A stretch of DNA of 64,000 bases from Anaerolineae bacterium (GTDB lineage: Bacteria > Chloroflexota > Anaerolineae > CG2-30-64-16), in NCBI GenBank assembly GCA_038214535.1, contig JBBQRS010000012.1, positions 517 through 64,516 on the forward strand, given 5' to 3'. A program made the position numbers and the translations under genes. Shown piece after piece: positions 7,510 to 60,089 of this stretch. Each line of letters opens with the position of its first letter. Within the stretch, counting starts at the first letter, position 1. Under the pieces are notes generated by a model. The model had not been told where the DNA came from, did not search any database, and saw nothing but the letters and a program-made list of their open reading frames with translations.

Positions 7510-7644
7510 ATCATCCCCCGAATGCTGAGTCTACACCAGCTTCTTACGGGCGACGAATCACCCGGTTGCGCGATCCGGCTTTGCATCCTGCCCCGGCTAC
7601 CGTATAATGTCTTCAGCATACCGACCCAACCCGGAGACCCACCC

Positions 7645-8016: not shown

Positions 8017-8033
8017 ACCCTTAGGCGCTGCTC

Positions 8034-31061: not shown

Positions 31062-31097
31062 TGCCTTTGATCGTTCATTCCTGAGGAGTTAACGTAT

Positions 31098-31958: not shown

Positions 31959-31961
31959 CTC

Positions 31962-33161: not shown

Positions 33162-33164
33162 TAC

Positions 33165-35446: not shown

Positions 35447-35467
35447 TGACTTTCACCCTGTAACGGC

Positions 35468-36658: not shown

Positions 36659-36683
36659 CAGGTTCAACAATCAGGCTTATACG

Positions 36684-37283: not shown

Positions 37284-37285
37284 CA

Positions 37286-38505: not shown

Positions 38506-38509
38506 CACA

Positions 38510-40881: not shown

Positions 40882-40943
40882 CTCAAAGCGCCCATTCAAC
40901 GATTCCACCCCGCACGTTACGCTATCACGAAGTCTGAGGCCAC

Positions 40944-42329: not shown

Positions 42330-42347
42330 CAGAGCCTGCTTTCTCCC

Positions 42348-45063: not shown

Positions 45064-46340
45064 TGGCTCGCATCCTGTTCCTGACACAGGTCCTGCCCTA
45101 TCCCCTGGACGCCGGACCCAAAGTGCGCGCATATCACATGATCCGCCACCTGGCGCAGCGTCATGAGATCATGCTGGTCAGTTTCGTGCGCAAGGACGAT
45201 CAGCGCGCATCCATCGAACATTTACGCGGCATCTGCGCCGATGTCCGCACCGTGCTGATGCAACGCTCCATGCCGCAAAACCTGCGCGCCGCGATCAAGA
45301 GCTTCGCCACCGGCATCCCGATTGTCGCCGCCCGTGATGAAACGGCAGCCATGACCCTGGCCATTCATGAGGCCGTAACCGCTTTTCAGCCCGATGTGGT
45401 TCATGCCGATCAACTCTCGATGGCCGGTTACGGTCAGTTGACGGCCCGGCGGACAGAGCAACGTCGCCCCGCAACCGTCCTTGACGAGCACAACGCCATT
45501 TATCTATTGACTCGCCGCATCGCCGCAGGGGAAACCAACCCACTCCGGCGCGCCATCGTCGAACGCGAGGCGCGCGCCTTCGTGCGCTACGAAGCCGACA
45601 TGTGCCGCGCCTACGATCACATCTTCACGGTCACCGCCGAAGACAAAGATCACCTGTTGGCCCTGGAACCCATCGAAGCGCGGGCCGCCGCTGCGAGCCG
45701 GTTCACCGTTGTGCCCATCTGTGTAGACCCCGACCGCACCGCCGTGGTGCAGCCACAGCACGCCACGCCGCCAACGATCCTGCACCTGGGCACGATGTTC
45801 TGGCCGCCCAATGTGGCCGGGGTGCTATGGTTTGCGCGCGAGGTCTTGCCGCTGATCCATCGCGTTCAGCCGGATGCGAAGTTTGTGATCGTCGGCAAAA
45901 ACCCGCCGGATGAGATCCTTGCGCTCGCCGCAGATCCTCGCATCGAGGTCACCGGCTATGTCGCGGATCCCATGCCTTATCTTACGGCAGCAGACGTCTT
46001 CATCGTCCCCCTGCACGCGGGCGGCGGGATGCGCGTCAAAATCCTCGATGCGTGGTTATGGGGCATGCCCATTGTGTCTACGGCCATCGGCGCGGAAGGC
46101 ATCGAAGTCCTGGATGGTGAGAACATCCTGCTTGCAGACCATCCGCCCGCCTTCGCTTCCGCGGTTCTCGCGCTCTTGCAGGATGAGGCCCTTAATCAAA
46201 AACTGCGCGTCCGGGGCCGCGCCTGGGTAGAAACCCACTACGCCTGGCAAACCGTCTATCAACGCGTCGACCAGGTTTACGACCGTCTGCTTTCGGGCAG
46301 CCGTTCGCCGCAGCAAAGCGCCGTCGCATTATCTGCTTAA
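45063..46340 (+). CDS. GT4 family glycosyltransferase
   Basis: GT-B fold (ILFLTQVLPYPLDAGPKVR N-terminus; C-terminal GGMRVKILDAWLWGMPIVSTAIGAEG). GTG start overlapping the upstream stop. Confidence 0.65.
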   Translation: MARILFLTQVLPYPLDAGPKVRAYHMIRHLAQRHEIMLVSFVRKDDQRASIEHLRGICADVRTVLMQRSMPQNLRAAIKSFATGIPIVAARDETAAMTLAIHEAVTAFQPDVVHADQLSMAGYGQLTARRTEQRRPATVLDEHNAIYLLTRRIAAGETNPLRRAIVEREARAFVRYEADMCRAYDHIFTVTAEDKDHLLALEPIEARAAAASRFTVVPICVDPDRTAVVQPQHATPPTILHLGTMFWPPNVAGVLWFAREVLPLIHRVQPDAKFVIVGKNPPDEILALAADPRIEVTGYVADPMPYLTAADVFIVPLHAGGGMRVKILDAWLWGMPIVSTAIGAEGIEVLDGENILLADHPPAFASAVLALLQDEALNQKLRVRGRAWVETHYAWQTVYQRVDQVYDRLLSGSRSPQQSAVALSA

Positions 46341-46360
46341 AACCGATTTCGCCAAAAGTC

Positions 46361-46439
46361 TATCCTCAAACTTCGTAGTATAGCCCCTCGTGGGCGTTCG
46401 CGACGGGCACAAGGCCCTACACTACGAAATTTGAGGATA
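46361..46439. repeat. Intergenic palindromic repeat element, copy 2 of 3 (19-bp terminal inverted repeat around the conserved core)
   Basis: TATCCTCAAACTTCGTAGT ... ACTACGAAATTTGAGGATA, inverted with one mismatch. The core GTAGTATAGCCCCTCGTGGGCG matches 20/22 with the other copies. It lies between the last GT gene and the next gene. Confidence 0.6.
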
Positions 46440-46470
46440 GATTCCAAGTTTACACTGCCAGGCTAAAAAC

Positions 46471-48786
46471 ATGACCCAAAACAACTTCACTGTCTGTCCA
46501 TATCTCGGCATGTCGGGAGAGCGCACCGTCGTGCGCACCGAACCCGATCTGATGCACCGTTGTTTCGCGCAAAGTCCTGCCGGCCAGCCCGATCTCGACC
46601 ATCAGGCTCGTTACTGCCTGAGCGCCAATTATCCGGCCTGCTCGATCTACAAACAATACGTCGAGCCGGAAACCGAAGAGCTTGAAGAAGACGAAGAAGA
46701 GACGCGCCAGGGAATGAGCTCCGCCGCGCGTCTGGCCCTCTTGTTGATTCCCATCGCATTGTTGCTCACCCTGGCCTTACTCTACTTCCGAGACCTGGCA
46801 TCCGCCCCCACGCCGGTTGCGATCGAAGTCGCTCAACCGACCCAGGCGTCTCCAATCCCGACGCAACCACCCGTTGCGACCACCGATTCTTCTCAGCCGC
46901 AACCGATTGCCGCAGTGACGCTGGTTCGCCCCGAAACGGTCACGCCGGCGCCAGGTGGTCAGGTCTTCTCGGCCACGCCGTTACAGGGTGAAGTCGGCTG
47001 GTGGACCAGCAGTGAGGCGGATAGCAACCACGTCTCCGATTCTTATCTCTATGCCGGATACTACGAAGGAAATTCATTCCTGTCGGCCGTGCGGTTCGAC
47101 CTCAAAGGCGCCCCACGCGGCGCGCCGATCAGCGACGGAACCATCCAACTGACGGGCTTACTGGACGACCGCTTCAACCCGGGCTCAGGCGGAACGTGGT
47201 CCGTTCAACTGATCCCCGGCAAAGCCTTGCCGCCGTTGCAACAGGTCAACTTCCAGACATTGCTCAACACCCCGGCGCAAATGACCCTTTTCCCTGAGCT
47301 TTATCCTGCCGACCTGGGCGTCGGTCAAGTCAACATCGTGAACCTCGACGCATCGGCGCGTTCTTGGCTCCAGGAGCAAATCCTGCTCGGCGAAACCGAA
47401 ATCATCGCTCGCATCACCGGGCCAGGCGGCGGTGATTCGCTCTTCGCCTGGGATAGCGGAGACGGCCCCGCGACGGCCGGTGAAGCGCCGCGGCTCATTC
47501 TCAGCCTCGACGCTCCGCCGCCGACCGCGCCGCCCCTGCCGACCGATGTCTTCCTGGTCGCCACGCTGACGCCTACGCCTGAAAACGTGCTTACCGCGGC
47601 CGCAGAGATTGCCCTGAGCACCCAGCAAGCGCTCGACGGCGCATCGGGGTCACAGATCATCCCCGTTTACACGCCGACGCTCGTGCCTGAAAATCTGGCA
47701 ACCGTGCAAGCCGGTCGGTTGCTCGCGGGGCTACCGCTTTACGTGGTCTACACACCCGTCCCCGCGAATGGGGCGACCGCGACGGCCAACGCATTGGAGG
47801 CGACGGCTATCGCCGTAACCACGGGCACATTCACGCCGGTGCCGCCCGATGCAGTGACCCCAATCATCGTGCTGCCCACGCCCATGCCGGAAAACGTTGC
47901 GACGGCGGCGGCGCAGAAAGCCATCACCACCGCGCAGGCCGCCTCAGTCGGCACGGTCACCCCCTTGCCGCCGAATATCGTCATGGCAACACGCACGCCG
48001 ACCGCGATCGTCGTCACTCGCACACTGACCCCGGAAAATCAACAAACGGCGGCGATCAATTCGCTCATCATGACGGCTGTCGCAGCGACAACCGGCACCT
48101 TCACGCCCTTCCCGCCCAACGTGGTGACGGCCACGCCCAGCCCGTTGCCGACCGCCACGCCAAAGGCACCCTTCCTGATCTATCTCGATCAGATTACACC
48201 CGATCCGACGGCAACCGGCGACGGCAGGATGCCTCAAGAACTGCGCGGCAAGGTTCTGTTCAAGAGCGACCGCGAAGATGGAACTCGCATCATGGCCGTG
48301 GACCCCGCGACCGGACGGCAGGCCAACCTCGCCAGCCCCTGGCCGTACAGCGAAGCCGAACATATCCAGTTGACTTCGCCTGATGGCCGTTTCGTCCTCA
48401 CCGTGGAATATGACGATATCGGGCGCACCCAGATTATCTCCACGGACGTCTCGACCGGCGCACGTCAAAAGATCACGAACAACCGCCTGGGCGCGTATGA
48501 GCCTGCATGGTCGCCCACTGCCAACAGGATCGCTTTCGGCTCGTGGGATTCGGGCAACGAAGACATCTACACCATGGATCCCGATGGTTCCAACGTGATT
48601 CAAATTACCACGAATGGCAGCCAGGATCGCTATCCTTCGTGGTCGCCCAACGGCTCACAGATCGTCTATTGGTCCTCGCGTGACACGGGCCGCAGACAAC
48701 TGTGGGTGATGAACGCCGACGGCAGCAATCCGCGGCGGATGCTGACCTCCAACTATAATGACTATAATCCCATCTGGGTAAGATGA
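46471..48786 (+). CDS. Membrane-anchored protein: N-terminal Cys-rich (zinc-finger-like) cytoplasmic domain, single TM, Pro/Thr/Ala-rich tandem repeats, C-terminal TolB-like (PD40) beta-propeller
   Basis: N-terminal CPY..HRC..YC..AC pattern. TM segment ARLALLLIPIALLLTLALLYF. About 45-aa PEN-x-TAAA...TGTFTP-PPN repeats. C-terminal repeats of SP(D/N)G..(I/V).(F/Y) typical of PD40/TolB blades. Confidence 0.5.
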   Translation: MTQNNFTVCPYLGMSGERTVVRTEPDLMHRCFAQSPAGQPDLDHQARYCLSANYPACSIYKQYVEPETEELEEDEEETRQGMSSAARLALLLIPIALLLTLALLYFRDLASAPTPVAIEVAQPTQASPIPTQPPVATTDSSQPQPIAAVTLVRPETVTPAPGGQVFSATPLQGEVGWWTSSEADSNHVSDSYLYAGYYEGNSFLSAVRFDLKGAPRGAPISDGTIQLTGLLDDRFNPGSGGTWSVQLIPGKALPPLQQVNFQTLLNTPAQMTLFPELYPADLGVGQVNIVNLDASARSWLQEQILLGETEIIARITGPGGGDSLFAWDSGDGPATAGEAPRLILSLDAPPPTAPPLPTDVFLVATLTPTPENVLTAAAEIALSTQQALDGASGSQIIPVYTPTLVPENLATVQAGRLLAGLPLYVVYTPVPANGATATANALEATAIAVTTGTFTPVPPDAVTPIIVLPTPMPENVATAAAQKAITTAQAASVGTVTPLPPNIVMATRTPTAIVVTRTLTPENQQTAAINSLIMTAVAATTGTFTPFPPNVVTATPSPLPTATPKAPFLIYLDQITPDPTATGDGRMPQELRGKVLFKSDREDGTRIMAVDPATGRQANLASPWPYSEAEHIQLTSPDGRFVLTVEYDDIGRTQIISTDVSTGARQKITNNRLGAYEPAWSPTANRIAFGSWDSGNEDIYTMDPDGSNVIQITTNGSQDRYPSWSPNGSQIVYWSSRDTGRRQLWVMNADGSNPRRMLTSNYNDYNPIWVR

Positions 48787-48918
48787 AACCGGAAATCGAA
48801 AAGAGGTCTCGCCCACTTGTGAGCACGCCTCGCGCGTGTTATAGTCCACTCGTTGTGGGCTTCTTGAAACGCGACGTCAAAAGATGCGCGTCTTCCCACG
48901 GCCTCAGGAGATCGTTGC

Positions 48919-50571
48919 GTGGAACTTAAAGACTACATTCGACCGATTCGTAAATGGTGGTGGTTGATTGCCGCATCGGTGCTCATCGCGACGCTGGCCG
49001 CTTATGTCGCGACGCGCCGGCAGCCGCCGATTTACAGCACGCGCACCACCGTCATGGTCGGCAATGCGATTGACAACCCGAACCCCAGTGGGTACGAGTT
49101 TTATCTCACCCAGCAATTAGCCAATACCTACGCCGACATTGCCGGTCGCGACAACGTCCGCGACGCGATCCAGATCGCGCTCGATTTGCCTTACGTGCCG
49201 CCCTACTCGGCGCGTGTCGTGCCCAACACCCAGTTGGTCGAAATAGTCGTCACTGACACGGACCCGCGCCGCGCGCAAAGCGTCGCCGAAGAAGTCGTTC
49301 ACCAACTCAGCCAGCTCAGCCCCACCGGTCAGGGCGGCCAGAGCCAGGCGCGCCAGGAATTCATCCAGAATCAGCTCAACGAGCTGGAAACCAACATTCG
49401 CAACACCCAGGCTGAATTAACCAAGCGCCAGGATGAATTGGCGACGCTTTTCAGCGCCCGCCAAATCGCCGATGCTCAGGCCACCATCGCCGGCCTCCAG
49501 AACAAGCTCGCCACGCTTCAGACCAATTACTCCGGCCTGCTCGCCAACACCCAGGCGGGCGCGCTCAACGCCATTAACATCATCGAAAAAGCTGCCCTGC
49601 CAACGAACCCGGTCGGGCCCAACAAGATGATGACCATCCTGATGGCCGCGGCGATTGGGCTCGCGCTGGCGACGGCCGCGAGCTATCTCCTCGAATACAT
49701 GGACGACTCCCTGAAAAACCCCGAGGATGTCAAGAAGGCCCTTGGGGTGACGACGCTTGGCGCCGTGCCGCGCATTGATGGCACAGCTCCCGGCAACGAA
49801 CTCGCGATCCTTACCAACAGTCAATCCACGGCCGCCGAAGCCTATCGCGTGCTGCGCACCAATCTGCAATTCGCAGCCGTTGACCGACCGCTAGATACTC
49901 TGTTGGTCACCAGCCCGGCCCCCAGTGAGGGCAAATCCATGACCATCGCCAATCTGGCGGCGGCGCTGGCCCAGGCCGGCCAGAAGGTCATCATCGTGGA
50001 CACCGACCTCCACCGCCCGCGCCTGCACAAAGTCTTTGGCCTGCGCAACAACCTCGGCGTCACCACGGCGCTCCTGCAAGAGCATCCCAATATTGACGGC
50101 TTGCTCCAGGAGACCACCCTGCCGAATCTGCGCGTGCTGACCGCCGGCCCATTGCCGCCCAACCCGGCCGAGTTGCTCGGTTCGCAACGCATGGCCGAAC
50201 TTATGGCAACCCTCAAGAACGAGTCGGACATCGTGCTCTTCGATAGCCCGCCCGTAACGGCCCTATCGGATACGGCGATCCTCTCCACGCAGATGGACGG
50301 TGTGCTGCTAGTCATAGACGCCGGCAAGACGCGTCGCGACATCGCGAAGCGCGCCATCGAAGCGCTAAACCGCGTCAATGCCCACGTGATCGGCGTGCTG
50401 CTCAATCGCATGCCCATGCAAGGCGGCGGCGGTTACTACTACTACTACCAGTATGGCGACTATTACGGGTCAAACGACGGCTCCGCCAGCCAGGGTAAGA
50501 AGGGCAAGCGGCCGCGCGCTCGAGCGCGCGGTGCCGAGTCGCCGCAAACGATCACCGAAACGCCGCAATAA
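48919..50571 (+). CDS. Polysaccharide co-polymerase / tyrosine autokinase (Wzc/EpsB-like: Wzz domain + BY-kinase)
   Basis: N-terminal Wzz TM domain, a coiled-coil region, Walker A SEGKS, A' VDTDLHRP, Walker B VLFDSPP, and a C-terminal Tyr cluster GGGGYYYYYQYGDYYG. GTG start. Confidence 0.75.
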   Translation: MELKDYIRPIRKWWWLIAASVLIATLAAYVATRRQPPIYSTRTTVMVGNAIDNPNPSGYEFYLTQQLANTYADIAGRDNVRDAIQIALDLPYVPPYSARVVPNTQLVEIVVTDTDPRRAQSVAEEVVHQLSQLSPTGQGGQSQARQEFIQNQLNELETNIRNTQAELTKRQDELATLFSARQIADAQATIAGLQNKLATLQTNYSGLLANTQAGALNAINIIEKAALPTNPVGPNKMMTILMAAAIGLALATAASYLLEYMDDSLKNPEDVKKALGVTTLGAVPRIDGTAPGNELAILTNSQSTAAEAYRVLRTNLQFAAVDRPLDTLLVTSPAPSEGKSMTIANLAAALAQAGQKVIIVDTDLHRPRLHKVFGLRNNLGVTTALLQEHPNIDGLLQETTLPNLRVLTAGPLPPNPAELLGSQRMAELMATLKNESDIVLFDSPPVTALSDTAILSTQMDGVLLVIDAGKTRRDIAKRAIEALNRVNAHVIGVLLNRMPMQGGGGYYYYYQYGDYYGSNDGSASQGKKGKRPRARARGAESPQTITETPQ

Positions 50572-50642
50572 CCTGAACATTCGCACGCGGGTTCCAACCG
50601 CAATAGACCGCAATTTAGATTGAAATTTCACACTGGAAAGTC

Positions 50643-50862: not shown

Positions 50863-52314
50863 ATGACATTACTTCCGAAGAGAGCAAACTTACTCCTGAT
50901 TGTGGTCCTGCTGTTAAGCTTCACGCTCGCCATCCCGGTGAGCGCGCAGGCTCCGACGCCGGAACCCAACGACATCGAGCTCGCCCTGGTGCTTGACGGT
51001 TCGGGCAGCATCGGGATCGATAACTTCAGAATCATGAAAGAAGGCATCGCGGCGGCCCTCGCTAACCCCGCATGTGTGCCGGAAGATGGTTCCATCTGGG
51101 TTTCCGTAACCCAGTTCGGTGCGGACGCGACGGTCGAGATGCCGCTGACGGAAGTCACGGTCGCCAGCATTGCCGGCATTGCCGCGACGGTGGCAAACAT
51201 TCCCTACAAGGATTCCTTCACCAATTATCAGGCAGGCATCGAGACCGGCTTGAGCACTTACGCGGGTACCGGTCGCCGCCAGGTCATGAACTTCGCAACC
51301 GATGGTCAGCCGAATACAGGCGACATCCAGCACACACCCACCTTGCGTCAGATGGCGATTGACGCCGGTGTTGATGAACTGGACATCGAAGCCATTGGCG
51401 ACCCTGAGATCCTTAACATCCCGCGCCTTCAGGACCTTGCCCACCCGCAGCCGGGCGTCCTCTGGGAAAATACGCCCCTGCCGACTGCACCGGGTTGGGT
51501 AAAACGGGTCGAGAATTACAATGAGTTCGCGGACAGCATCTGCGCCAAGTTCGTTTCGATCGCCAGCGGTCGCCTGGTCGTCAGCAAGGTCACGAACCCC
51601 AGAGGCGCGGGCCACGTGTTTGACTTCTCATTGACCGGCCCCAATACGAACGAAACGTTCCAGTTGAAGGACGGCGAAAGCTTCAGCACCGAGGCGAACC
51701 TGGCGGACGGAACCTACACGGTTACCGAAATCTACAATGACGACGGAGCCGGGGGCGAAGACGGCTGGACGACAGCCATCTCCTGCGACACCGCGCCGCC
51801 CACCACCTCAGAGACCAACACGATTGACGTGATGGTTGACGGCCCGGTGGAGTGCATCGTCACCAATACCGCCGATCCGACATCGGTGCAACTGGCCGAT
51901 TTCAGCGGCGCCGTCAAGCCGGATCACATCCTGCTGAGCTGGGAAACCGTCAGCGAAGTGAACAACCTGGGCTTCAACGTCTACCGTAGCGACGCCGCCA
52001 ACGGCGCGCAGAGCCTCATCTCGGCCACGATGATCCCGGCCAACAACCCGGGCGCGACTCAGGGCTCGACCTACAGCTTCCAGGACACCAACGTGCAGCC
52101 GGGCGTAACCTACTACTACTGGCTCGAAGATCTGGACGCAACTGGCCAGGCGAGCAAAGCCGGCCCGGTGGCCGTGACCTTCCTCGGCCCCACGTCCGTC
52201 GGCCTGAATAGCTTCACCGCTGCGGCTTCGTCGGCTCCCGCCCTGCTCGGGTTGGGGGGCGCAGCAATGGCTGCCCTCGCCGGCCTCGCCGTCGCCCGTC
52301 GCAAACAAGACTGA
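50863..52314 (+). CDS. Secreted vWA-domain protein with C-terminal PEP-CTERM-like sorting signal variant
   Basis: Signal peptide, the MIDAS-like LVLDGSGSI motif, a central beta-sandwich region, and the C-terminus SAPALLGLGGAAMAALAGLAVARRKQD (hydrophobic helix plus basic tail). Confidence 0.5.
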   Translation: MTLLPKRANLLLIVVLLLSFTLAIPVSAQAPTPEPNDIELALVLDGSGSIGIDNFRIMKEGIAAALANPACVPEDGSIWVSVTQFGADATVEMPLTEVTVASIAGIAATVANIPYKDSFTNYQAGIETGLSTYAGTGRRQVMNFATDGQPNTGDIQHTPTLRQMAIDAGVDELDIEAIGDPEILNIPRLQDLAHPQPGVLWENTPLPTAPGWVKRVENYNEFADSICAKFVSIASGRLVVSKVTNPRGAGHVFDFSLTGPNTNETFQLKDGESFSTEANLADGTYTVTEIYNDDGAGGEDGWTTAISCDTAPPTTSETNTIDVMVDGPVECIVTNTADPTSVQLADFSGAVKPDHILLSWETVSEVNNLGFNVYRSDAANGAQSLISATMIPANNPGATQGSTYSFQDTNVQPGVTYYYWLEDLDATGQASKAGPVAVTFLGPTSVGLNSFTAAASSAPALLGLGGAAMAALAGLAVARRKQD

Positions 52315-52346
52315 CAACGCGGTCACCACTCAAGGAGTTTGAAACT

Positions 52347-52535
52347 ATGGAGAAAATCACACACACGCAGCCGATGGCGACCAGGCAAGTCTGGGAAGAA
52401 CCCGCCATCATCCTTGAACGCCCGTTGGAAGTCGTCGCCCAGGATGGCCCAACCGATGATAACTGGGTCGCACCCAGCCCGTGGCGTCTGCCCGGCCCGC
52501 TTGCCGCATCCGGCGGCGCCGGCTTCTGCCAGTAA
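52347..52535 (+). CDS. Candidate RiPP precursor peptide, copy 1 (62 aa)
   Basis: Strong RBS AAGGAG 10 nt upstream. The C-terminal 47 aa are identical to copy 2 at 54391 despite many synonymous nucleotide differences. A terminator follows. Confidence 0.6.
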   Translation: MEKITHTQPMATRQVWEEPAIILERPLEVVAQDGPTDDNWVAPSPWRLPGPLAASGGAGFCQ

Positions 52536-52561
52536 TCACCTGCCCTGACTCGTAACATGGT

Positions 52562-52596
52562 GCGCCGGGCCTTGCGGCCCGGCGCATTTGTTTTTT
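52562..52596 (+). terminator. Rho-independent terminator (GCGCCGGGCC-TTGC-GGCCCGGCGC + ATTTGTTTTTT)
   Basis: A perfect 10-bp GC stem followed by a U-run, 27 nt after the precursor stop. Confidence 0.65.
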
Positions 52597-52697
52597 CCAC
52601 CGGCGTCTCCGGCGCAAGTTGCTGATCGCAACAGTCGTTGCGACTTATCGTCGCCAGTAGAGATGCCTCAATGACCCGGTAATGTAACTTTGCTTGC

Positions 52698-52726
52698 TTG
52701 ACACTTGCATCACTCCATGCTAAAAC
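52698..52726 (+). promoter_or_regulatory. Candidate sigma70-type promoter (TTGACA-17 bp-TAAAAC) upstream of the RRE/rSAM genes
   Basis: Consensus -35 with an AT-rich -10 at 17-bp spacing, in the 270-bp gap between the terminator and the PqqD-like gene. Confidence 0.3.
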
Positions 52727-52867
52727 TAAAGCGATTGCCGTAGAGGTCGCTTACGGATCTGGGCGGCTGCGATTGTCTTCCTGGTCCGGGCAATGTCGCC
52801 CCCATCACCCGGCAGTGACCCGCTATTTACTGCCAATTCTTTGACTCCCAACGGAGCACAAAACGTC

Positions 52868-53155
52868 ATGTCTCAAACCGATACCCGCAGGCCATCGCAT
52901 CATTCACGAACGGCATCGCGCGTCTTCAGCGGTGAAGCCGTGGTCATTACCCCTGCCGAAAACGTCGTGCGTATGCTCAACCCGATCGGTTCCCGAATCT
53001 GGGAACTGGCCGACGGCACGCGCACGATTGACGACATAGCGTCCGTGCTCACCGGCGAATTCGATGTAGACTTCGCTCACGCCCATCAAAGCGCAACAAC
53101 CTTCGTCGAAGACCTGGCTGCCAGAGGCTTGATCGCATTCGAGGAGAGCGAATGA
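52868..53155 (+). CDS. PqqD-like RiPP recognition element (RRE) protein
   Basis: About 95 aa. The motif GEAVVITPAENVVRMLNPIGSRIWELADGTRTIDDIASVL matches the PqqD family pattern (E.V.L.....y.LN..g..IWeLldG..t..eI). GGAG RBS. The stop overlaps the rSAM start. Confidence 0.6.
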   Translation: MSQTDTRRPSHHSRTASRVFSGEAVVITPAENVVRMLNPIGSRIWELADGTRTIDDIASVLTGEFDVDFAHAHQSATTFVEDLAARGLIAFEESE

Positions 53156-54345
53156 GCGGCATTCCTCTGATGCTCACGCCACCCACAGAGCCTCTGCATC
53201 GCGGTTTCGAGGCTTGCGGCTCAGACAGCGCCCCACACGATGCCTTCGAGGCGCTGCTGGCGCGGATGCGTGACGAGTTCATCCCCTTCACCGTGCTTTG
53301 GGAGATGACCCACACCTGCAACCTGGACTGCATCATGTGCTACAACGTGAAGCAGTCGCAGCCCGAGCTCGCGACCGATGAAGCGTTGGAGTTGCTCGAA
53401 CAGATGGCGCAGGCAGGGACGTTACGGCTCATCATGACCGGCGGTGAAATCCTGGCCCGCCGTGACTTCTTCACCATCGCCAACCGGGCACGCGCCCTGG
53501 GTTTTGCGCTGGACCTGAAAACCAACGGCAGCCTGCTCACGTCCGAATCTGCGGATCGCATGGCCGCGTTGGAACCGGTGCAGGTGGAAATCAGCCTGCT
53601 TGGCGCGACCACGGCGACGTTCGACGCCATCGCGCAAAGCAAGGACACGCTGCGGCGCGTCCTGCGCGGCGTCAAGCTCCTGAAAGAGCGCAGCGTCCGC
53701 GTCAAGCTCAATACCCTGCTGATGGACCTCAATTTCGCCGAGCGTGAGCAGATGTTCGAAATCGCAAGCGAGCTTGGCGTGGAGTACGAACAGGCCATCA
53801 AGATATCCCAGTCTGATGACGGCTCGGACAAGGCCGGCAGCCACCAGATCAGCCGCGCGCAGATCACCGACACGCTGGTCACCTACGAAGCGCCGTTTGC
53901 GCCGATTCAACTCACGCCCAACCGGCGCACCTGTAAAGTGGGCTTGTCTTCGTGTCTCATCAGTCCCTACGGCATCGTTTACCCGTGCGTCGAATTGCGC
54001 ATCCCCGCCGGCGATTTGCGCAAACGCTCGTTCGGTGAGATTTGGGCCGACGCGCCGATTTTTAGCAATTTACGGGCAAACCACACATTCAAGAATCTGC
54101 CGGAATGCCAGGTCTGCCCCATCAACACCTATTGCGAGGGGCGCTGCGCCGGCCTGGCATGGAAAGAGCACGGCGATCCTTACGGCGGTCACATGCTGGC
54201 CTGCCGGCACGCGCAAGCGCGCTTCGCCCAACAGAACCCGGATGAAGCCATCCCTGAGACGCCGTTGCAGGCGCGCCTCAAGCGTGAGCGCGGCGGCGAA
54301 CAAGAAACCGTCAAACACCAACCGATTATGCTTGTTGACATGTAA
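53152..54345 (+). CDS. Radical SAM / SPASM-domain peptide maturase
   Basis: The CNLDCIMC (CX3CX2C) motif after an N-terminal extension, and a C-terminal Cys-rich SPASM region (CKVGLSSC...YPC...CQVCPINTYCEGRC). Confidence 0.8.
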   Translation: MSGIPLMLTPPTEPLHRGFEACGSDSAPHDAFEALLARMRDEFIPFTVLWEMTHTCNLDCIMCYNVKQSQPELATDEALELLEQMAQAGTLRLIMTGGEILARRDFFTIANRARALGFALDLKTNGSLLTSESADRMAALEPVQVEISLLGATTATFDAIAQSKDTLRRVLRGVKLLKERSVRVKLNTLLMDLNFAEREQMFEIASELGVEYEQAIKISQSDDGSDKAGSHQISRAQITDTLVTYEAPFAPIQLTPNRRTCKVGLSSCLISPYGIVYPCVELRIPAGDLRKRSFGEIWADAPIFSNLRANHTFKNLPECQVCPINTYCEGRCAGLAWKEHGDPYGGHMLACRHAQARFAQQNPDEAIPETPLQARLKRERGGEQETVKHQPIMLVDM

Positions 54346-54390
54346 TTTGGTTGTTATGTAAACGTTATAGAGAAGCGAAGGAGTCGTCTC

Positions 54391-54579
54391 ATGGACACAA
54401 AACCATATCCGCAAAATGTCGTAACCAAACGAACGTGGGAAGAACCCGCGATCATCCTGGAACGCCCGCTCGAGGTCGTCGCGCAAGACGGGCCGACCGA
54501 CGACAACTGGGTCGCGCCCAGCCCGTGGCGTTTGCCCGGCCCCCTCGCCGCATCCGGTGGCGCCGGTTTCTGCCAATAA
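54391..54579 (+). CDS. Candidate RiPP precursor peptide, copy 2 (62 aa)
   Basis: AAGGAG RBS. The residue 16-62 region is identical to copy 1 (WEEPAIILERPLEVVAQDGPTDDNWVAPSPWRLPGPLAASGGAGFCQ). The N-terminal 15 aa differ. Confidence 0.6.
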   Translation: MDTKPYPQNVVTKRTWEEPAIILERPLEVVAQDGPTDDNWVAPSPWRLPGPLAASGGAGFCQ

Positions 54580-54607
54580 TTATCCGTACACAACCCTATA
54601 GGCAAAG

Positions 54608-54640
54608 ATTGCGAGGTCTTGGAACCTCGCAATTTAATTT
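54608..54640 (+). terminator. Rho-independent terminator (ATTGCGAGGT-CTTGGA-ACCTCGCAAT + TTAATTT)
   Basis: A 10-bp perfect stem and a U-rich tail about 30 nt after the copy-2 stop. Confidence 0.55.
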
Positions 54641-54671
54641 ACACCCTTTGAGAGGCAGCGTGTCGTTAGCA

Positions 54672-57536
54672 ATGAAAAACCACAAGCGCGCCTGGGGCGT
54701 CATCTCGGCTATCCTCCTGGTGTCCATGCTCGTCACACCCGGATATGCCGGCAGCGCCGCGCAGGCTTCCGAACCGATCACACTCAGCGTCCGAACTCCC
54801 GAATATCAACTTGACGCGGCCGGTCTGCGCGTGCCCGGCTATACCACAAATCGTACGCCCGGCGCGCCGGCCCTTCCCGTCTATCAAACCATCGTTGAGT
54901 TGCCCCCATCGGGCGATTTCCAATTAGTGGTGACCACGCCCGGCGCTCAGGAGATGGCGACCTCTGTCACCATCCCCGCCGCGCCGTCACCCGATCCATC
55001 CGCCGATCATCCTCGCACCGGCTCCGATCCGGATGAGTTGCCCACCGACGCCGCCATGATCGTGCAACCCGACCCCGCGATCTACGACGTGGACGCCTTC
55101 TATCCGGGCCAGCCGGTCATCGCGGGCGAGGTGCAAATCCAGCGCGGCCGCCGGTTCCTGCCGCTCCAGGTGTTCCCCTTCCAGTACAACCCGACCACCG
55201 GCGCGCTGCGTTATCTGCCTGATATTGGCGTCACCGTGGAAATCACGCCCGCCGACAGCCAGGCAACCAACATTGCTGCACCCGATCTGGCACAGGTCAA
55301 CCCGCCTGCCGTGAACGGCGCCGCGCTGCGCATCTACATCTCGCAGCGTGGGATGCATCGGCTCACGTACAGCGACCTATCCGCCGCTGGCGTGCCGTTG
55401 GCCTCGACCAACGTCTCGGCCTTCGCCATATACTATCTCGGCCAGCCGGTGGACATCCAGGTGCTGGACCGCAACGGCAACAACCGGTTCGACGCCGATG
55501 ACCTGGTCATTTTCTACGCCGAGCCCTATCAGGGCCGCTACATGACCCGCAACGTCTACTGGTTCAGCTATGGCGCGGGCAGCGGGGCGCGGATGCAAAC
55601 GCGCGCCCGCACACCCTCGGGCGGGGAACCTGTCGTAACATCCATCACCCAGACCTCCCGCGTCGAGGTGGACAAGGTCTACGTGAGCGACATTCAGCGC
55701 CCGATAGACGAAGACCATTACTATGACAACTCGCTTTACGCCAACGCCGCCTACCCCACCGTAACCCGGACCTATAGCCTGCCTGTGGACGACCTGGTGA
55801 CCTCAGGCGCCGCATCGCTGCGCGCCAGCGTCTACGGGGGTAAAGTGCAGGGCGCCGCCACCGACCAATCCATGGCGATCCGTGTCAACGGGAACAACGC
55901 CGGAACGTACAAGTGGAAAGGCAAAACGGGATATACCGCCTCGACGGGCGTCTCCGGCGCGTGGCTCACCGATGGCGTCACCCAGGTTACGCTGGAAGCC
56001 GCGTTGAGCCAACTACCGGCGCTATCGTACTACTGGATTTACCCCGATTGGGTCGAACTGACCTATACCGCCACCGCCGACGCCGAAGCCGATCGCATCT
56101 ACATCGAAGCCGCGCCCGCGGGGGCTAATAAAGTCGTAGTGACAGGTTTCTCGTCGCCTGACGTACACGTGTACGATGTGCGCAACCCGCGCCAACCCGT
56201 CCAACTGACGACAGTGCAATCTCAGCCTGCGGGTGGAAGCAACACCATCCACTTCTGGGACGCCGATCTACCGAACCCGAGTTACTATCTGGCAACCGAA
56301 GCCGCACTGCTCGCGCCCGCCGAGATCCAGGCCGATACGCCATCCAGTTGGCAGTCGCCTTCCCGCAACGCGTCTTACATCGCCATCGTCCACAGCGACC
56401 TGTGGAACGCCGTCCAACCGCTACTCGACTTCCGGCAGGCCGAAGGGCTCGCCGTCGCCAAAGTCAACATCCAGGACGTTTACGACGAATTCAGCTACGG
56501 ACTGGTTGACCCCGAGGCCATCCGCGCATTTCTGACTTACGCCTATCAAAACTGGCGCAGCGACGGCAGCCCCCCCGAATACGTCATGCTTGTCGGCGAT
56601 GGGCATCACGATTTCAAGAACGCCGAAAACTCGACGCTCAAGAATCTGATCCCGCCCTACCTCGTGGACATAGACCCGTGGATCGGCGAAACCGCGGCGG
56701 ACAATCGTTTCGTCAGCGTGGACAGCCCCACAGACTTCCTGCCCGAAATGCACATCGGTCGGGTCTCCGCGCAGGATGCAGCAGGCGTCAACGCCTTCGT
56801 CAACAAGGTACTGGCCTACGAAGGCGCGCCCGGCGGGGCGTGGCAAAGCAACGTCGCCTTCATCGCAGACGACTGCAATAACGCGGTGGGCGACTTTAAC
56901 GCCATCAGCGAACTGATCCGTAAGAACTGGTTGCCCGCGCAATACAACGCATCCAGGACTTACTATCGCGTGCCGACGGCGGGCGACAACTGCCCCAATG
57001 CGAACTACACCGACCCGGCGGCGATGAAGAACGCCATCAAGACCGTCTACAACGGCCAGAATCTCATGTTACAGTGGTTCGGGCACGGCTCGCGCTTCCG
57101 CTGGGGCTATTCTTCCAGCCTCTTCAATTACGAAGATATCCCGGCGTTGGCCCCGAACACCGTTTGGCCCGTAGTGATGCACTACACGTGCTACACCGGT
57201 TACTTCCACAACGTCTATCAGAATCTGCAATCGCTGGCCGAAACGGAGTTGACCACCGCAAACCGGGGTTCCGTCGCCAGCTACGCCGCCACCGGTCAAC
57301 ACCTGGGCGTGGACGAACTGGTGATGAACGAGGGCGTCAACAAGGCCCTGTTTTATGATCGCCTGCCGCGGATCGGTCAGGTCATAGACTCGGCCCGCTA
57401 CTTCTACTTCGCAAACTCGCCGGTCTACCTCGACCTGATTGACTCTTCGGTTCTGTTCGGCGACCCGGCGCTCAAGGTCAAGTTGCCGGCGGCCATGGTC
57501 AACGTCAGCACGTACTTGCCAATGATCTCGCGGTAA
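54672..57536 (+). CDS. Secreted clan CD cysteine peptidase, C25 (gingipain)-like family, with large N-terminal propeptide/beta-rich region
   Basis: Signal peptide MKNHKRAWGVISAILLVSMLVTPGYAGSAA. Catalytic-dyad-like motifs WFGHGS (His) and HYTCYTGYF (Cys) in the C-terminal third. A GTG at 54660 is an alternative start. Confidence 0.5.
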   Translation: MKNHKRAWGVISAILLVSMLVTPGYAGSAAQASEPITLSVRTPEYQLDAAGLRVPGYTTNRTPGAPALPVYQTIVELPPSGDFQLVVTTPGAQEMATSVTIPAAPSPDPSADHPRTGSDPDELPTDAAMIVQPDPAIYDVDAFYPGQPVIAGEVQIQRGRRFLPLQVFPFQYNPTTGALRYLPDIGVTVEITPADSQATNIAAPDLAQVNPPAVNGAALRIYISQRGMHRLTYSDLSAAGVPLASTNVSAFAIYYLGQPVDIQVLDRNGNNRFDADDLVIFYAEPYQGRYMTRNVYWFSYGAGSGARMQTRARTPSGGEPVVTSITQTSRVEVDKVYVSDIQRPIDEDHYYDNSLYANAAYPTVTRTYSLPVDDLVTSGAASLRASVYGGKVQGAATDQSMAIRVNGNNAGTYKWKGKTGYTASTGVSGAWLTDGVTQVTLEAALSQLPALSYYWIYPDWVELTYTATADAEADRIYIEAAPAGANKVVVTGFSSPDVHVYDVRNPRQPVQLTTVQSQPAGGSNTIHFWDADLPNPSYYLATEAALLAPAEIQADTPSSWQSPSRNASYIAIVHSDLWNAVQPLLDFRQAEGLAVAKVNIQDVYDEFSYGLVDPEAIRAFLTYAYQNWRSDGSPPEYVMLVGDGHHDFKNAENSTLKNLIPPYLVDIDPWIGETAADNRFVSVDSPTDFLPEMHIGRVSAQDAAGVNAFVNKVLAYEGAPGGAWQSNVAFIADDCNNAVGDFNAISELIRKNWLPAQYNASRTYYRVPTAGDNCPNANYTDPAAMKNAIKTVYNGQNLMLQWFGHGSRFRWGYSSSLFNYEDIPALAPNTVWPVVMHYTCYTGYFHNVYQNLQSLAETELTTANRGSVASYAATGQHLGVDELVMNEGVNKALFYDRLPRIGQVIDSARYFYFANSPVYLDLIDSSVLFGDPALKVKLPAAMVNVSTYLPMISR

Positions 57537-57583: not shown

Positions 57584-58777
57584 ATGCAGCATCGGCTGCG
57601 TCCCTATTTTTTTTGGAAAGCGCCAATGGCCGCTAACTCAGTATTCGATCCCTTTGAGCTTTCAACGCGAGGCTCTCTTCCACCGAAGTGGGTGGACTGG
57701 CTGGGCCACACGCTGCGCGCGGAGGGCGCGCCGCCTGCGCCCGATCACCACCTCCTCGCCGAATGGCGCGCCGTGCTGCCCGCACTGGACGTTCACGCCA
57801 TCACGCCGCTGCTCTACCTGCGCCTGCGCGACGCCCGCCTCCTGCAAGCCTTGCCGCCGGAATTTCGCGATGCGCTCTACGTCACATTTCAAGACAACGC
57901 CTTGCGCTCCCTCGTCTTCGAACACGAACTTGAATCCATCATTGCGACCTTCGCGCGTGAGGGCATCCCCCTGATCTTGCTCAAGGGGCTTGCCACCGGG
58001 CGGCTGGTCTACGGCAGTCCCGCCGAACGCCCCATCGGAGACCTCGATCTGCTGGTTCCTTTCGACGATATGGCGCGGGCGCGCCGCACCCTGCGCCAAG
58101 CCGGCTACGAGAGCATCGGCTGGGCCGGGCTGGATCGTGTGGCGCGCTGGCAACACGCCTTCCGCTCGGAGATGCCCATGCTCTGCACCCGGCCCGACCG
58201 CTACGGCCTGGTCACCGAGTTGCACTGGTCGCTATTAGAGATTCCCTACTACATCCAGTGCATCCCTATGGCGGATGTTTGGGCTGCCGCCGCGCCGGTA
58301 TCCGGCCACCCCGGCGTCAGCGTCCCCGACCCGGCCACCCTGCTGATCCACAGCGCCGCGCACCTGGCGCTACATCACAGCCGCGAGCTGCGCCTGATCT
58401 GGTTGCTCGATCTCGACCGGCTCGCCCGCTGGCAGGCAATGGATTGGGCCGGGGTGATCGCATGGACGGAAACCTGGGGCCTCGGCAGGGCCGTCCACAC
58501 GGCTCTGAGCGTCTCACAGCGCTGGCTTGGCACGCCCGTCCCGCCAGACGCCCTTGCGCAACTCTCGCGGCTCACACATAGCGCCGCGGGCGATGCCACC
58601 TGGGGACTGGGCGATGAACAGGCCGGCCGCTCGCGCCGTCGCGCCGTCGTCAGTTGGCAATTGCTGAATGGGCGCGACCGCCTGCGTTACGCTGCCTGGC
58701 TGGGGTTTCGCTTGCTCCTGCGCCCCTTCGAGCTTGCCGGCCGCCCGGACAAACGCGCGAACATGGAGGTTCACTGA
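57584..58777 (+). CDS. Nucleotidyltransferase-fold protein (PF14907-like uncharacterised nucleotidyltransferase)
   Basis: Pol-beta NTase signature PIGDLDLLVP...D. This family is recurrently encoded beside HPr-kinase-like genes in RiPP (lasso) clusters. Confidence 0.5.
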   Translation: MQHRLRPYFFWKAPMAANSVFDPFELSTRGSLPPKWVDWLGHTLRAEGAPPAPDHHLLAEWRAVLPALDVHAITPLLYLRLRDARLLQALPPEFRDALYVTFQDNALRSLVFEHELESIIATFAREGIPLILLKGLATGRLVYGSPAERPIGDLDLLVPFDDMARARRTLRQAGYESIGWAGLDRVARWQHAFRSEMPMLCTRPDRYGLVTELHWSLLEIPYYIQCIPMADVWAAAAPVSGHPGVSVPDPATLLIHSAAHLALHHSRELRLIWLLDLDRLARWQAMDWAGVIAWTETWGLGRAVHTALSVSQRWLGTPVPPDALAQLSRLTHSAAGDATWGLGDEQAGRSRRRAVVSWQLLNGRDRLRYAAWLGFRLLLRPFELAGRPDKRANMEVH

Positions 58778-58778
58778 A

Positions 58779-59621
58779 ATGGCTGACGCGCTCACGCTCG
58801 ACATCAGCGGTCTGAAGATCTCCGTCGGCATCCCCCATCCCGATTGGCGCCCCGGCTTGGCCGAACGCTATGCCGCCTTCCTGAGCGACGACTCGCCGCG
58901 CTGGCGCGTGGATTTGCGCCACGACCCGGCGCTCACAGACACCGAGCATCCCTGGCTGCGCCACCACGGCGCGCTTTCGGTCTTCCGGGTTAACGCCTAC
59001 GCCGGCTGGATAGATATGGCGCGCCGCGCCGGATCGGTCGCCACGCCTTCCCACGCGCGGGCCGTCTCCGCCCTCGAACGCACGTTGGCCTACGTCTGTA
59101 TGCAGGCCCTGCCGCGTGAATACGATGCGCTCCTGCTCCACAGCGTCGGCGTTGAGGTGGGCGGACAAGGTCACGTTTTCTTTGGGCCGTCCGGCGCGGG
59201 CAAAACCATGATTGCGCGTTTGAGCGCAGGCTTCGGGCGTATCCTCAGCGATGAAAGCATCATCCTCCGTGACACCGGCGACGGCATCGCCCTCGACAGC
59301 ACCCCCTTCTGGGGCCTCAGCACGCCCCCGGAGATGGTGCATCGGGTGCGCCGCACGCTACCCCTCACGGCGCTCTACACGCTCGTCCACGCCCCCACCT
59401 TCGAATTGGAACGTCTGCGCCCGTGGGAGGCCGTCTCGACTTTGCTGAACACCGAGAAGGTCGCCGTAGAGCGCGTCGAAAGCGCCACAGTCTGGCTCTC
59501 CATCGTCGAGCGCATCCTGGCGCGCGTGCCGGTCTACCGGCTCAGTTTTCCGCCAACGGCCGATCTCTGGCCGTTCCTCAAATCCGCGCTCCCTGAACGT
59601 GCGTCGCCGCCGGCCGCCTGA
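58779..59621 (+). CDS. HPr kinase/phosphorylase C-terminal-domain-like P-loop protein (putative peptide kinase)
   Basis: P-loop GPSGAGKT preceded by LLLHSVGVEVGGQGHVFFG, like the HprK C-domain. GGAGG RBS. The start overlaps the upstream stop region. Confidence 0.5.
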   Translation: MADALTLDISGLKISVGIPHPDWRPGLAERYAAFLSDDSPRWRVDLRHDPALTDTEHPWLRHHGALSVFRVNAYAGWIDMARRAGSVATPSHARAVSALERTLAYVCMQALPREYDALLLHSVGVEVGGQGHVFFGPSGAGKTMIARLSAGFGRILSDESIILRDTGDGIALDSTPFWGLSTPPEMVHRVRRTLPLTALYTLVHAPTFELERLRPWEAVSTLLNTEKVAVERVESATVWLSIVERILARVPVYRLSFPPTADLWPFLKSALPERASPPAA

Positions 59622-59624
59622 ACG

Positions 59625-60089
59625 ATGCCCACGTCTTCCATCCCGCAGCACCGCGAGGCCGCGGCCTGGGTCCCCCTCCTGCTGGAGATCCTCAACCAGA
59701 AGGGGCGCTGCCGCTGGCCCTTACGCGGCCAGAGTATGCTGCCCACCCTGCCCTCCGACTGCGAGATTGACGTCGCGCCGCTGCCGTTCGACGTGCCGCT
59801 CGGTTCGCTGATCGTCTTCGCCAACGGCGACGCGCTGGTCGCCCATCGGCTGGTGCGGCGCGCCGGCGCCAAATGGATCGCGCAGGGCGACCACCGTCGC
59901 AGTCCCGACAGAGGGCTTGATCCCGCCCAGGTATTGGGCATCGTGCGCGCAGCCTACCTTCCGAACGGGGAACAATGCTGGCCGCCGGCCTTGTCCGGCG
60001 CGCTGGCGTGGTATTGGATTGCGCGCTATCATATGTATCGAGCGGCGCGCTTCGCCATTCGCGCGATGTACGGTCGTCCCAGAGGATAG
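59625..60089 (+). CDS. S24/S26-family (signal peptidase I / LexA-like) peptidase
   Basis: GQSMLPTL Ser-nucleophile motif and a downstream conserved basic residue region (AHRLVRR). 154 aa. Confidence 0.45.
   Translation: MPTSSIPQHREAAAWVPLLLEILNQKGRCRWPLRGQSMLPTLPSDCEIDVAPLPFDVPLGSLIVFANGDALVAHRLVRRAGAKWIAQGDHRRSPDRGLDPAQVLGIVRAAYLPNGEQCWPPALSGALAWYWIARYHMYRAARFAIRAMYGRPRG

Follow-up and report, generated by a model that had tools for sequence, protein, structure and literature searches.

Duplicated genes for one predicted ribosomal precursor peptide flank a PqqD/radical SAM gene pair in an Anaerolineae bacterium

A stretch of 64,000 nucleotides from an Anaerolineae bacterium (assembly GCA_038214535.1, contig JBBQRS010000012.1), here called the window, contains two open reading frames (ORFs) of 62 amino acids, A1 and A2. 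They lie on either side of the genes for a PqqD-family protein and a radical S-adenosylmethionine (SAM) enzyme with a SPASM domain. A1 and A2 are best explained as paralogs that encode one and the same ribosomal precursor peptide, the substrate of a PqqD-dependent peptide-modification pathway. For this explanation as a whole, with the origin, selection and mechanism proposed below, we estimate a probability of about 75%. It builds on the observed gene structure, the identity of the two products, the age of the duplication, the selection pattern, membership in a peptide family and a link between the radical SAM gene and a C-terminal Cys. The duplication is old. Neither gene is spurious, and very strong purifying selection acts on both proteins. 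Related loci from other assemblies are designated by L numbers, and all coordinates without such a number refer to the window.

One protein core in two genes

The two genes and their ribosome binding sites are located as follows.

52347–52535, forward strand: precursor gene A1, 62 amino acids
54391–54579, forward strand: precursor gene A2, 62 amino acids, residues 16–62 the same as in A1
52332–52337, forward strand: AAGGAG ribosome binding site of A1, 9 nt upstream of the ATG, invariant in L001, L015 and L016
54378–54383, forward strand: AAGGAG ribosome binding site of A2, 7 nt upstream of the ATG

An earlier note on this DNA had described an identical protein core from W16 to the stop, with about 18 codons that differ synonymously. 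The codon-by-codon comparison gave exactly this result. From W16 to Q62, the proteins were identical over 47 codons and both genes ended with TAA. Differences were present in 18 of the 47 codons, amounting to 19 nt, and the recount revealed no amino acid change. All examples listed in the note were found (GCC/GCG, CTT/CTG, TTG/CTC, GAA/GAG, CAG/CAA, GAT/GAC three times, GGC/GGT twice and CCA/CCG). The only codon with two nucleotide differences was Leu27, TTG/CTC. The N-terminal 15 residues differed as described, at 12 of 15 positions and 22 of 45 nucleotides, and the near-consensus AAGGAG sites were present ahead of both start codons.

The core comprised 34.7 synonymous and 106.3 non-synonymous sites. 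The probability that 19 random substitutions would all be silent is approximately (34.7/141)^19 = 2.6e-12. Synonymous divergence (dS) between the two cores was 0.88 by the NG86 method, and the non-synonymous divergence (dN) of 0.009 given by this method is merely a path-averaging artefact of the TTG/CTC codon. Each copy taken alone had a dN of about 0 between orthologues, and therefore neither copy is decaying. Four parts were distinguished in the A1 peptide: an unconstrained N-terminus (M1–V15), a recognition-like motif found throughout the peptide family (W16–Q32), a variable Pro-rich linker (D33–R47) and a conserved C-terminal motif (L48–Q62). The latter contains G50, P51, S55 and C61, and the peptide ends with ..GFCQ. 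Neither peptide matched any Pfam or NCBIfam model.

Age of the duplication and upkeep of the identity

Both copies were found at the same two positions in the window, in L001 (radical SAM protein 94% identical to that of the window), in L015/L016 (89%) and in L034/L035 (76%). The nearest single-copy lineages, L017–L019 and L024, had radical SAM proteins with 77–80% identity and held the downstream copy only. Their spacer between PqqD and the upstream gene for a surface protein with a VWA domain is about 100 nt long, with no gene at the A1 position. Since A2 occupies the position of the only copy in these relatives, A1 is the derived, inserted copy. All A1 copies and all A2 copies of the window, L001, L015 and L016 (the window clade) grouped separately, with at least 8 silent sites fixed between the groups. 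The duplication thus predates the splits between these genomes, and most of the gene has escaped homogenisation from then on.

Four-sequence site patterns agreed with this history. The comparison of the window with L001 gave 10 orthology-type sites, no concerted-type site and one site of the third type, and pairs of close-clade genomes showed 7–12 orthology-type against 0–1 concerted-type sites. In the window clade, A1 and A2 differed at 16–19 nt, compared to 3–8 nt between A1 orthologues. Recent conversion of the whole gene was rejected for this clade, as the paralog-specific silent sites were common across genomes. For scale, the dS of the neighbouring radical SAM gene across the three lineages of the clade was 0.59–0.90, and 0.12 between the near-identical L015 and L016. 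In L034, the A1 N-terminus resembled that of the window A1, with 15 of 45 nt different compared to 33–34 of 45 between A1 and A2.

A1 was a local peak of nucleotide identity between the window and L001, L015 and L016. Its third-position divergence of 0.09–0.16 was 2–4 times below that of the adjacent radical SAM gene with 0.28–0.38 (Fisher p 1e-4 to 0.015), and that of A2 was not significantly different from the radical SAM gene. Two causes of the low silent divergence of A1 were considered and rejected: mRNA structure, with folding z-scores of only −1.4 for A1 and −1.1 for A2, and a regional effect, because A1 is a local identity peak.

The differing N-termini had led to the proposal in the earlier note that two leaders deliver one core to the maturase. 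The genes would then be functionally different, for instance through other partners or regulation at the protein level, which we consider improbable. The 12 residue differences and the A1-type N-terminus (..QPMATRQVW), which is fairly well kept among A1 orthologues, are in its favour. However, between orthologues, codons 2–15 change roughly as fast as silent sites (dN/dS approximately 0.6–1), and the A1/A2 nucleotide difference over these codons (p = 0.52) falls within the range that a sequence free of constraint should show at the core dS, equalling the saturated silent divergence of the core. Silent divergence is just as low along the entire A1 gene, and the conservation among A1 orthologues is therefore a property of the gene and not of the leader. 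Across the peptide family, the segment before W16 varies in length and sequence, save for a basic residue 2–3 positions before the Trp. The family-wide motif W-E-x-P-x-I-x-L-E-R-x-L-E-x-x-A-Q is situated inside the identical part, and therefore both genes encode functionally the same precursor, including the recognition sequence. The N-terminal 15 residues are an almost free extension and not a second kind of leader. Judging from its conservation across the family, W16–Q32 is a plausible recognition site for PqqD. That one or both ORFs are spurious or that the duplication is an assembly artefact is next to impossible. High-GC DNA yields many chance ORFs, including opposite-strand mirror ORFs at this locus, but specific support for this reading was absent. 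The 19 of 19 silent differences were obtained in one frame only: the annotated frame gave 0 differences in 47 codons, compared to 5–18 in the other five frames, minus-strand mirror ORFs included. Orthologues of both copies were present in five further assemblies, and the family comprised 135–225 clusters. An assembly artefact is excluded, as the DNA of the copies differs, which speaks against a collapsed or duplicated assembly, and the layout recurs in L001, L015, L016, L034 and L035. The argument of the earlier note that the substitution pattern speaks against spurious ORFs was thus sound.

How the identity of the cores has been maintained was less clear-cut. Between genomes, the cores varied at residues 38, 42 and 60, and both copies within each genome always agreed. 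The window carried D38, A42 and F60. L001, L015 and L016 had E38, and L034 had E38, Q42 and Y60. Among single-copy loci, L022 and L024 showed Q42 and L017 showed E42, with D38 and F60 in all three. As the replacements are mirrored in both copies, gene conversion or parallel selection is needed beyond purifying selection. The earlier note had proposed an old duplication kept identical by purifying selection. Its age was corroborated by the shared paralog-specific silent sites and strong selection by a dN of about 0, but selection alone is insufficient in view of the coordinated replacements. The identity of the two cores is actively kept, by micro-conversion or by parallel selection. Recurrent short-tract conversion between A1 and A2 might be the main force, with purifying selection only filtering the outcome; we regard this as a possible, though somewhat doubtful, account. 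It is favoured by the mirroring of every replacement and by the change of Q42 to A, which requires two nucleotide changes and was seen in both paralogs of the window clade. Likewise, the A2 of L034 differed at 14 nt from the A1 of the same genome but at 24–28 nt from the other A2 copies, and the comparison of the window with L034 gave 5 concerted-type against 4 orthology-type sites. Two of these concerted sites were silent (codons 50 and 58) and near F60Y. This pattern in L034 speaks for partial conversion. In contrast, the 7–12 paralog-specific silent differences persisted across the window clade, and the longest identical runs between A1 and A2 were 15–26 nt, no longer than expected by chance (permutation p = 0.39–0.93). 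The Glu codon 38 differed between the copies of L001, L015 and L016 (GAG vs. GAA), which simple conversion would not leave and which points to parallel mutation or to a silent change after conversion. In L034, codon 38 was GAG in both copies.

Peptide family, neighbouring genes and proposed pathway

The signals and genes around A1 and A2 are the following.

about 31000–50600: exopolysaccharide locus upstream of the module
50863–52314, forward strand: surface protein with a VWA domain (Pfam VWA 6.5e-11), directly 5' of A1
52559–52598, forward strand: A1 terminator of the intrinsic type, 13-bp stem (10 G-C pairs) with a T run 3' of the stem, −30 kcal/mol, z = −5.5
52698–52726, forward strand: candidate promoter-like element TTGACA-17 nt-TAAAAC for the PqqD–radical SAM–A2 unit, from alignments
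52727–52867, forward strand: conserved 5' leader upstream of PqqD, approximately 140 nt, kept in five genomes
52868–53155, forward strand: PqqD-family peptide-binding protein of the RiPP recognition element (RRE) type, 95 amino acids (Pfam PqqD 8.9e-16, 58.4 bits vs. cut-off 23.4)
53152–54345, forward strand: radical SAM/SPASM enzyme, 397 amino acids (Pfam Radical_SAM 2.3e-20, SPASM 9.8e-10)
54606–54635, forward strand: hairpin after A2, −17.1 kcal/mol, z = −3.75, with an interrupted and weak U tract (UUUAAUUU)
54672–57536, forward strand: secreted, PorU-like Peptidase_C25 protein (Pfam 7.1e-74, 249.7 bits) with N-terminal signal peptide and GHG and TCYTG motifs
57584–58777, forward strand: NTP_transf_5 (PF14907) nucleotidyltransferase-family protein (Pfam 2.2e-50), conserved module member by synteny
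58779–59621, forward strand: ScmC/HprK-related P-loop protein with GPSGAGKT (NCBIfam ScmC 5.5e-6, HprK_rel_A 1.4e-5, both below cut-off)
59625–60089, forward strand: candidate small S24/S26-like peptidase with GQSMLPTL motif, conserved module member

A scan of species-representative genomes with the window radical SAM protein gave 13 related loci. Twelve of them came from assemblies of Chloroflexota, for the most part with the label Anaerolineae and with Ca. Amarolinea aalborgensis among them, and one (L012), on a short contig, was binned as Methylococcaceae. In a fourteenth locus, L014, the radical SAM protein was merely 24% identical. A metagenome scan with the peptide as query produced 600 pattern matches, none of which was confirmed, and a second one with the radical SAM protein produced 10 loci. 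Relatives of the precursor, for which the earlier note had suggested a search near radical SAM/SPASM genes, were indeed there: a homologue adjoined the radical SAM gene in all 14 radical SAM-containing loci in which one was detected, in addition to the two in the window. The conserved gene set was NTP_transf_5, ScmC-like, PqqD, radical SAM, precursor and C25, in varying gene order. The universal module consists of PqqD, ScmC-like, precursor and C25 genes, joined by NTP_transf_5 and S24 genes where the flanking sequence sufficed. The variation in order concerned distant lineages: in L002 of Ca. Amarolinea (7125–8381), about 1.2 kb separated the radical SAM gene and the precursor, and in L026/L027 the precursor preceded the radical SAM gene by about 2.4 kb.

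The peptide family comprised 225 clusters at 90% identity in a profile search and 135 representatives at 50% identity in an exhaustive search. All members were about 45–75 amino acids long, unnamed and without Pfam domains. The N-terminal part of the consensus was [R/K]-K-x-W-E-x-P-A-I-V-L-E-R-x-L-E-V-x-A-Q-G-G-P-P, followed by a variable Pro-rich stretch. The C-terminal part was G-F-L-G-P-L-x-x-S-G-G-x-G-x-C and then 0–11 residues. In an alignment of 66 sequences, W16, P19, E24, R25, L27, A31, P51 and C61 were invariant. A literature search found no publication on the peptide family and nothing relevant on the HprK-related kinase, PF14907, ScmC, GeoRSP or Chloroflexi radical SAM RiPPs (peptides made on the ribosome and modified after translation).

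The Cys of these peptides is single and located 0–11 residues from the C-terminus (C61 in the window peptide). It was present in every radical SAM-containing locus with a detected precursor. These included L044 with a distant Cys-bearing member and the genes NTP_transf_5, S24, ScmC, PqqD, radical SAM, precursor and C25. Distant members without Cys were shorter and ended soon after F-L-G-P-L-x-S/T-S/T (e.g. ..FLGPLSTSGT and ..GPLTT). All four Cys-less loci examined (L038-40, L041, L042 and L043) had the precursor directly 3' of PqqD with no radical SAM gene in between. The precursor was followed by the C25 gene in L038-40 and L041 and by an unassigned ORF of 1151 amino acids in L043; in L042 the contig ended there. 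As the radical SAM gene tracks the Cys, a Cys-directed reaction is indicated. The radical SAM gene appears to be an add-on that arrived with the C-terminal Cys.

The gap between the VWA gene and A1 was 32 nt and contained no terminator; A1 is therefore probably co-transcribed with the VWA gene. The earlier note had assigned a rho-independent terminator to each ORF. For A1, the terminator was canonical and firm, and its stem was kept through compensatory changes in L015 and L034. The signal after A2 was weaker. Its hairpin was conserved in L001 and L015, but the U tract was interrupted and the terminator scan did not call it. A possible function is that of an attenuator or RNA-stabilising element ahead of the C25 gene. 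In the promoter-like element, TTGAC was invariant in five genomes, and the sixth base was G in L034. In the 5' leader upstream of PqqD, compensatory changes preserved a first hairpin, and the PqqD ribosome binding site was covered by a CTCC..GGAG hairpin; the conserved boxes TCCGGGCAATG and GTCACCCGGCAGTGAC were also present. An Rfam search of 52300–54800 returned terminator-like noise only and no family for this leader.

The pair between the ORFs, which the earlier note had read as an RRE protein and a radical SAM enzyme, was identified as a PqqD-type recognition protein and a radical SAM/SPASM enzyme. The PqqD start was fixed by the 95-amino-acid orthologues in L015 and L016. The radical SAM protein contains the CX3CX2C motif CNLDCIMC at residues 56–63 (C56, C60 and C63) and the full set of SPASM cysteines (C261, C279, CQVCPINTYCEGRC at 319–332 and C351). 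Its best NCBIfam matches were AhbD, NirJ2, the StsB sactipeptide maturase and MftC, and its best matches in the Protein Data Bank (PDB) were BlsE, PqqE and SkfB. The C25 gene was located 3' of and next to the precursor in 15 of the loci examined, and PorU was matched in the PDB at 1e-10. The longest C25 ORF (54351–57536) opens at the TTG at 54351 and overlaps A2 in another frame, and thus gene calling by longest ORF could hide A2. The true start is most likely the ATG at 54672, after which the signal peptide follows.

Orthologues of the P-loop protein at 58779–59621 carried a Pfam PF27840 ScmC match, and a PDB sequence search with the window protein gave matches at the P-loop level only. In L044, a second pair of ScmC (weak match) and NTP_transf_5 genes at 10756–12201 was located 3' of the C25 gene, which suggests that the tailoring genes are duplicated in some genomes. 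The S24/S26-like protein of the window had no family match itself. Its orthologue in L017 matched Peptidase_S24 at E = 0.043, and the L044 gene in the equivalent position (3329–3718), between NTP_transf_5 and ScmC, matched PF00717 Peptidase_S24. A homologue with 42% identity was located directly 5' of PqqD in L041 (1–267), while the window copy is 3' of ScmC. This protein is a candidate leader peptidase.

The exopolysaccharide locus contained genes for RmlD, GT2 and an acyltransferase, for several GT4s and a Wzy-like protein, and for a priming glycosylphosphotransferase and a Wzc-like tyrosine kinase. The NCBIfam models it matched best were of the XrtA/PEP-CTERM type, below cut-off. Similar contexts were observed in L006, L011, L015, L043 and L044. 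The VWA protein terminates with FLGPTSVGLNSF, a hydrophobic helix and RRKQD, and this tail was kept in L001, L015, L024 and L034. The end domain (52150–52314) follows the pattern W-E-T-x-S-E..G-F-x-V-Y-R-S..L-E-D-L-D..F-L-G-P-T-S-V-G-L-N-S-F, ahead of the helix and RRKQD. No NCBIfam sorting-signal model matched this anchor domain. An anchor of the same type terminates the C25 protein of L005 (about 10500–10740).

We propose the following origin and mechanism. An insertion of approximately 520 nt between PqqD and the VWA gene upstream of it would have occurred in the ancestor shared by a small clade of Anaerolineae. The inserted DNA would have comprised the second copy, A1, together with the strong terminator, the promoter-like element and the structured 5' leader. 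Afterwards, extreme purifying selection would have acted on both copies between W16 and the stop, with silent sites drifting to a dS of about 0.9 and rare amino acid replacements becoming fixed in both copies. PqqD may bind the shared W16–Q32 segment and offer the peptide to the enzymes that modify it. The radical SAM/SPASM enzyme is predicted to act on or through Cys61, most probably by forming a thioether-type crosslink. The ScmC/HprK-like P-loop protein and the NTP_transf_5 protein may decorate the conserved GPL-x-x-Ser region, and by analogy with the lasso peptides discussed below, the Ser/Thr after G-P-L is their likely target. The leader would be removed by the S24-like peptidase, the secreted C25 peptidase or both. 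With two genes, transcription would have two inputs and the dose would be higher for a substrate of which each product uses up one molecule. A1 would run with the VWA gene and stop at its own terminator, and A2 would belong to the enzyme operon.

Several points weigh against this proposal. We infer the chemistry, the binding of W16–Q32 by PqqD, the leader cleavage site and the dosage or regulatory rationale for two copies. The radical SAM protein scored below every curated NCBIfam cut-off, and its reaction is thus not readable from homology. The link between this gene and the Cys is based on four Cys-less loci that are not phylogenetically independent, two of them on short contigs. No exporter was recognised among the module genes, although the C25 peptidase is secreted. 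The strict promoter scan missed the element 5' of PqqD, whose −10 hexamer is without the final T, which makes it a conserved consensus-like match only. Finally, the extra silent-site constraint on A1 may be a sign that its DNA or RNA has a function outside the model. A different role of the peptides is conceivable as well. They could be substrates or acceptors of the PorU-like C25 protein acting as a sortase, joined to exopolysaccharide or surface proteins, and not precursors of classical secreted natural products. The location of the module inside large exopolysaccharide loci in many genomes, the C25 gene 3' of the precursor in the 15 loci and the type IX secretion sortase PorU as best named C25 relative are consistent with this. 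Moreover, the core motif F-L-G-P-L-x-S/T resembles FLGPTSV ahead of the membrane anchor of the adjacent VWA protein. However, this likeness covers four residues, and the occurrence of the anchor domain in the C25 protein of L005 makes it look like a general surface-anchor module. The PorU models scored far below their cut-offs and no conjugate is known, making this role unlikely. Similarly speculative is a new class of ribosomal peptide systems tied to exopolysaccharide and cell-surface biogenesis in Anaerolineae. It would combine a PqqD-guided precursor, its decoration by HprK-like kinase and nucleotidyltransferase, a radical SAM enzyme in the Cys branch and extracellular handling by C25, possibly with transpeptidase coupling to polymer or anchored proteins. 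If true, the rule that the two copies always specify one and the same peptide would stem from selection for a structural or recognition unit and not from simple redundancy.

Comparison with known systems

Three features of an RRE-dependent radical SAM/SPASM RiPP pathway were present: a conserved precursor ORF next to the maturase gene, a PqqD-type protein and a radical SAM protein with CX3CX2C motif and SPASM domain. The closest named system is the SynChlorMet (SCM) cassette, which was defined in silico (TIGR04248-TIGR04251, PF27840) and on which a search of the available literature library found nothing. Both systems share an HprK-related P-loop protein of the ScmC type, a PqqD-family protein and a radical SAM/SPASM enzyme, and the best NCBIfam matches of the window PqqD and of the protein at 58779–59621 were ScmD and ScmC, respectively. 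However, all cut-offs were missed, with 40 vs. 100 for ScmD, 25.9 vs. 125 for ScmC, 80.2 vs. 400 for ScmE and 56.4 vs. 400 for ScmF. The SCM cassette has two radical SAM genes and the present module one. The C25 peptidase, the S24-like peptidase, NTP_transf_5, its own precursor family, the Chloroflexota hosts and the context of exopolysaccharide loci further set the module apart.

The predicted cysteine chemistry invites comparison with sactipeptides and ranthipeptides. The radical SAM protein had a full-length match to the StsB maturase model (121.6 bits, residues 47–354) and also matched AlbA and SkfB, and its gene co-occurred with the peptide Cys. In contrast to these systems, there is one Cys per peptide, and all model scores were below cut-off. 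A small peptide with PqqD and a radical SAM/SPASM enzyme is also the arrangement of PqqA, PqqD and PqqE in the biosynthesis of pyrroloquinoline quinone (PQQ), and several bacteria have more than one pqqA copy. By eye, W-E-E-P-A-I-I-L-E-R-P-L-E-V resembles the PqqA pattern W-x-K-P-x-x-x-x-x-R-x-G-x-E-V. However, the precursors matched no PqqA model and lacked a Glu-x3-Tyr pair, the window peptide having no Tyr. The PqqE score was 98.7 vs. a cut-off of 381.35 and that of PqqD 26.8 vs. 46, and PqqB and PqqC were not seen among the genes examined. Mycofactocin was not supported, with an MftC model score of 117.6 vs. 265 and a peptide ending in ..GFCQ instead of Gly-Val-Tyr. Neither was a type IX sortase PorU (PorU 219.3 vs. 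420, PorU2 176.4 vs. 450), and the protein is placed as a member of Peptidase_C25 only.

In some lasso-peptide precursors, homologues of HPr kinase phosphorylate the Ser at the C-terminus, and a nucleotidyltransferase adds hexose to the phosphate (PMC8498205). The clusters of such phosphorylated and phosphoglycosylated lasso peptides (paeninodin, pseudomycoidin) resemble the present module in combining an HPr-kinase homologue and a nucleotidyltransferase, together with a PqqD-type protein (PMC8498205). The shortest members of the present family end with ..GPLTS, ..GPLTT or ..GPLST, which is reminiscent of the C-terminal Ser as lasso target. In contrast, no match to a cyclase or B2 protease was found among the module genes, which include a radical SAM enzyme and a C25 peptidase, and the lasso PqqD models scored below cut-off (32.3 vs. 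80 and 20.4 vs. 70).

Duplicated precursor genes are ordinary in ribosomal peptide clusters and already well known. For thiocillin as well, several genes provide the same precursor to one set of enzymes, and the four copies tclE-H are identical. These are the thiocillin prepeptide genes (PMC10704990). They stand in tandem, whereas A1 and A2 flank the enzyme genes and belong to different transcription units. The copies described here are also strongly diverged at silent sites and traceable as orthologous pairs through several genomes. The pair is a clean natural experiment on the degree of constraint that a small peptide substrate may be subject to, with 47 residues showing no difference at a dS of about 0.9 and rare replacements that are always mirrored. 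The constraint pattern offers a direct handle on the residues that matter, namely W16–Q32, G50–P51 and C61, and the coming and going of the radical SAM gene with the C-terminal Cys predicts the role of its enzyme. Within Anaerolineae, and there also in the wastewater filament Ca. Amarolinea, attention is drawn to a fairly large unannotated peptide family and its conserved enzyme set. What is generally understood about how ribosomal peptides are made is not altered. The pathway is an uncharacterised variant of the theme of peptide modification by PqqD and radical SAM proteins, with an unusual enzyme set and genomic setting.

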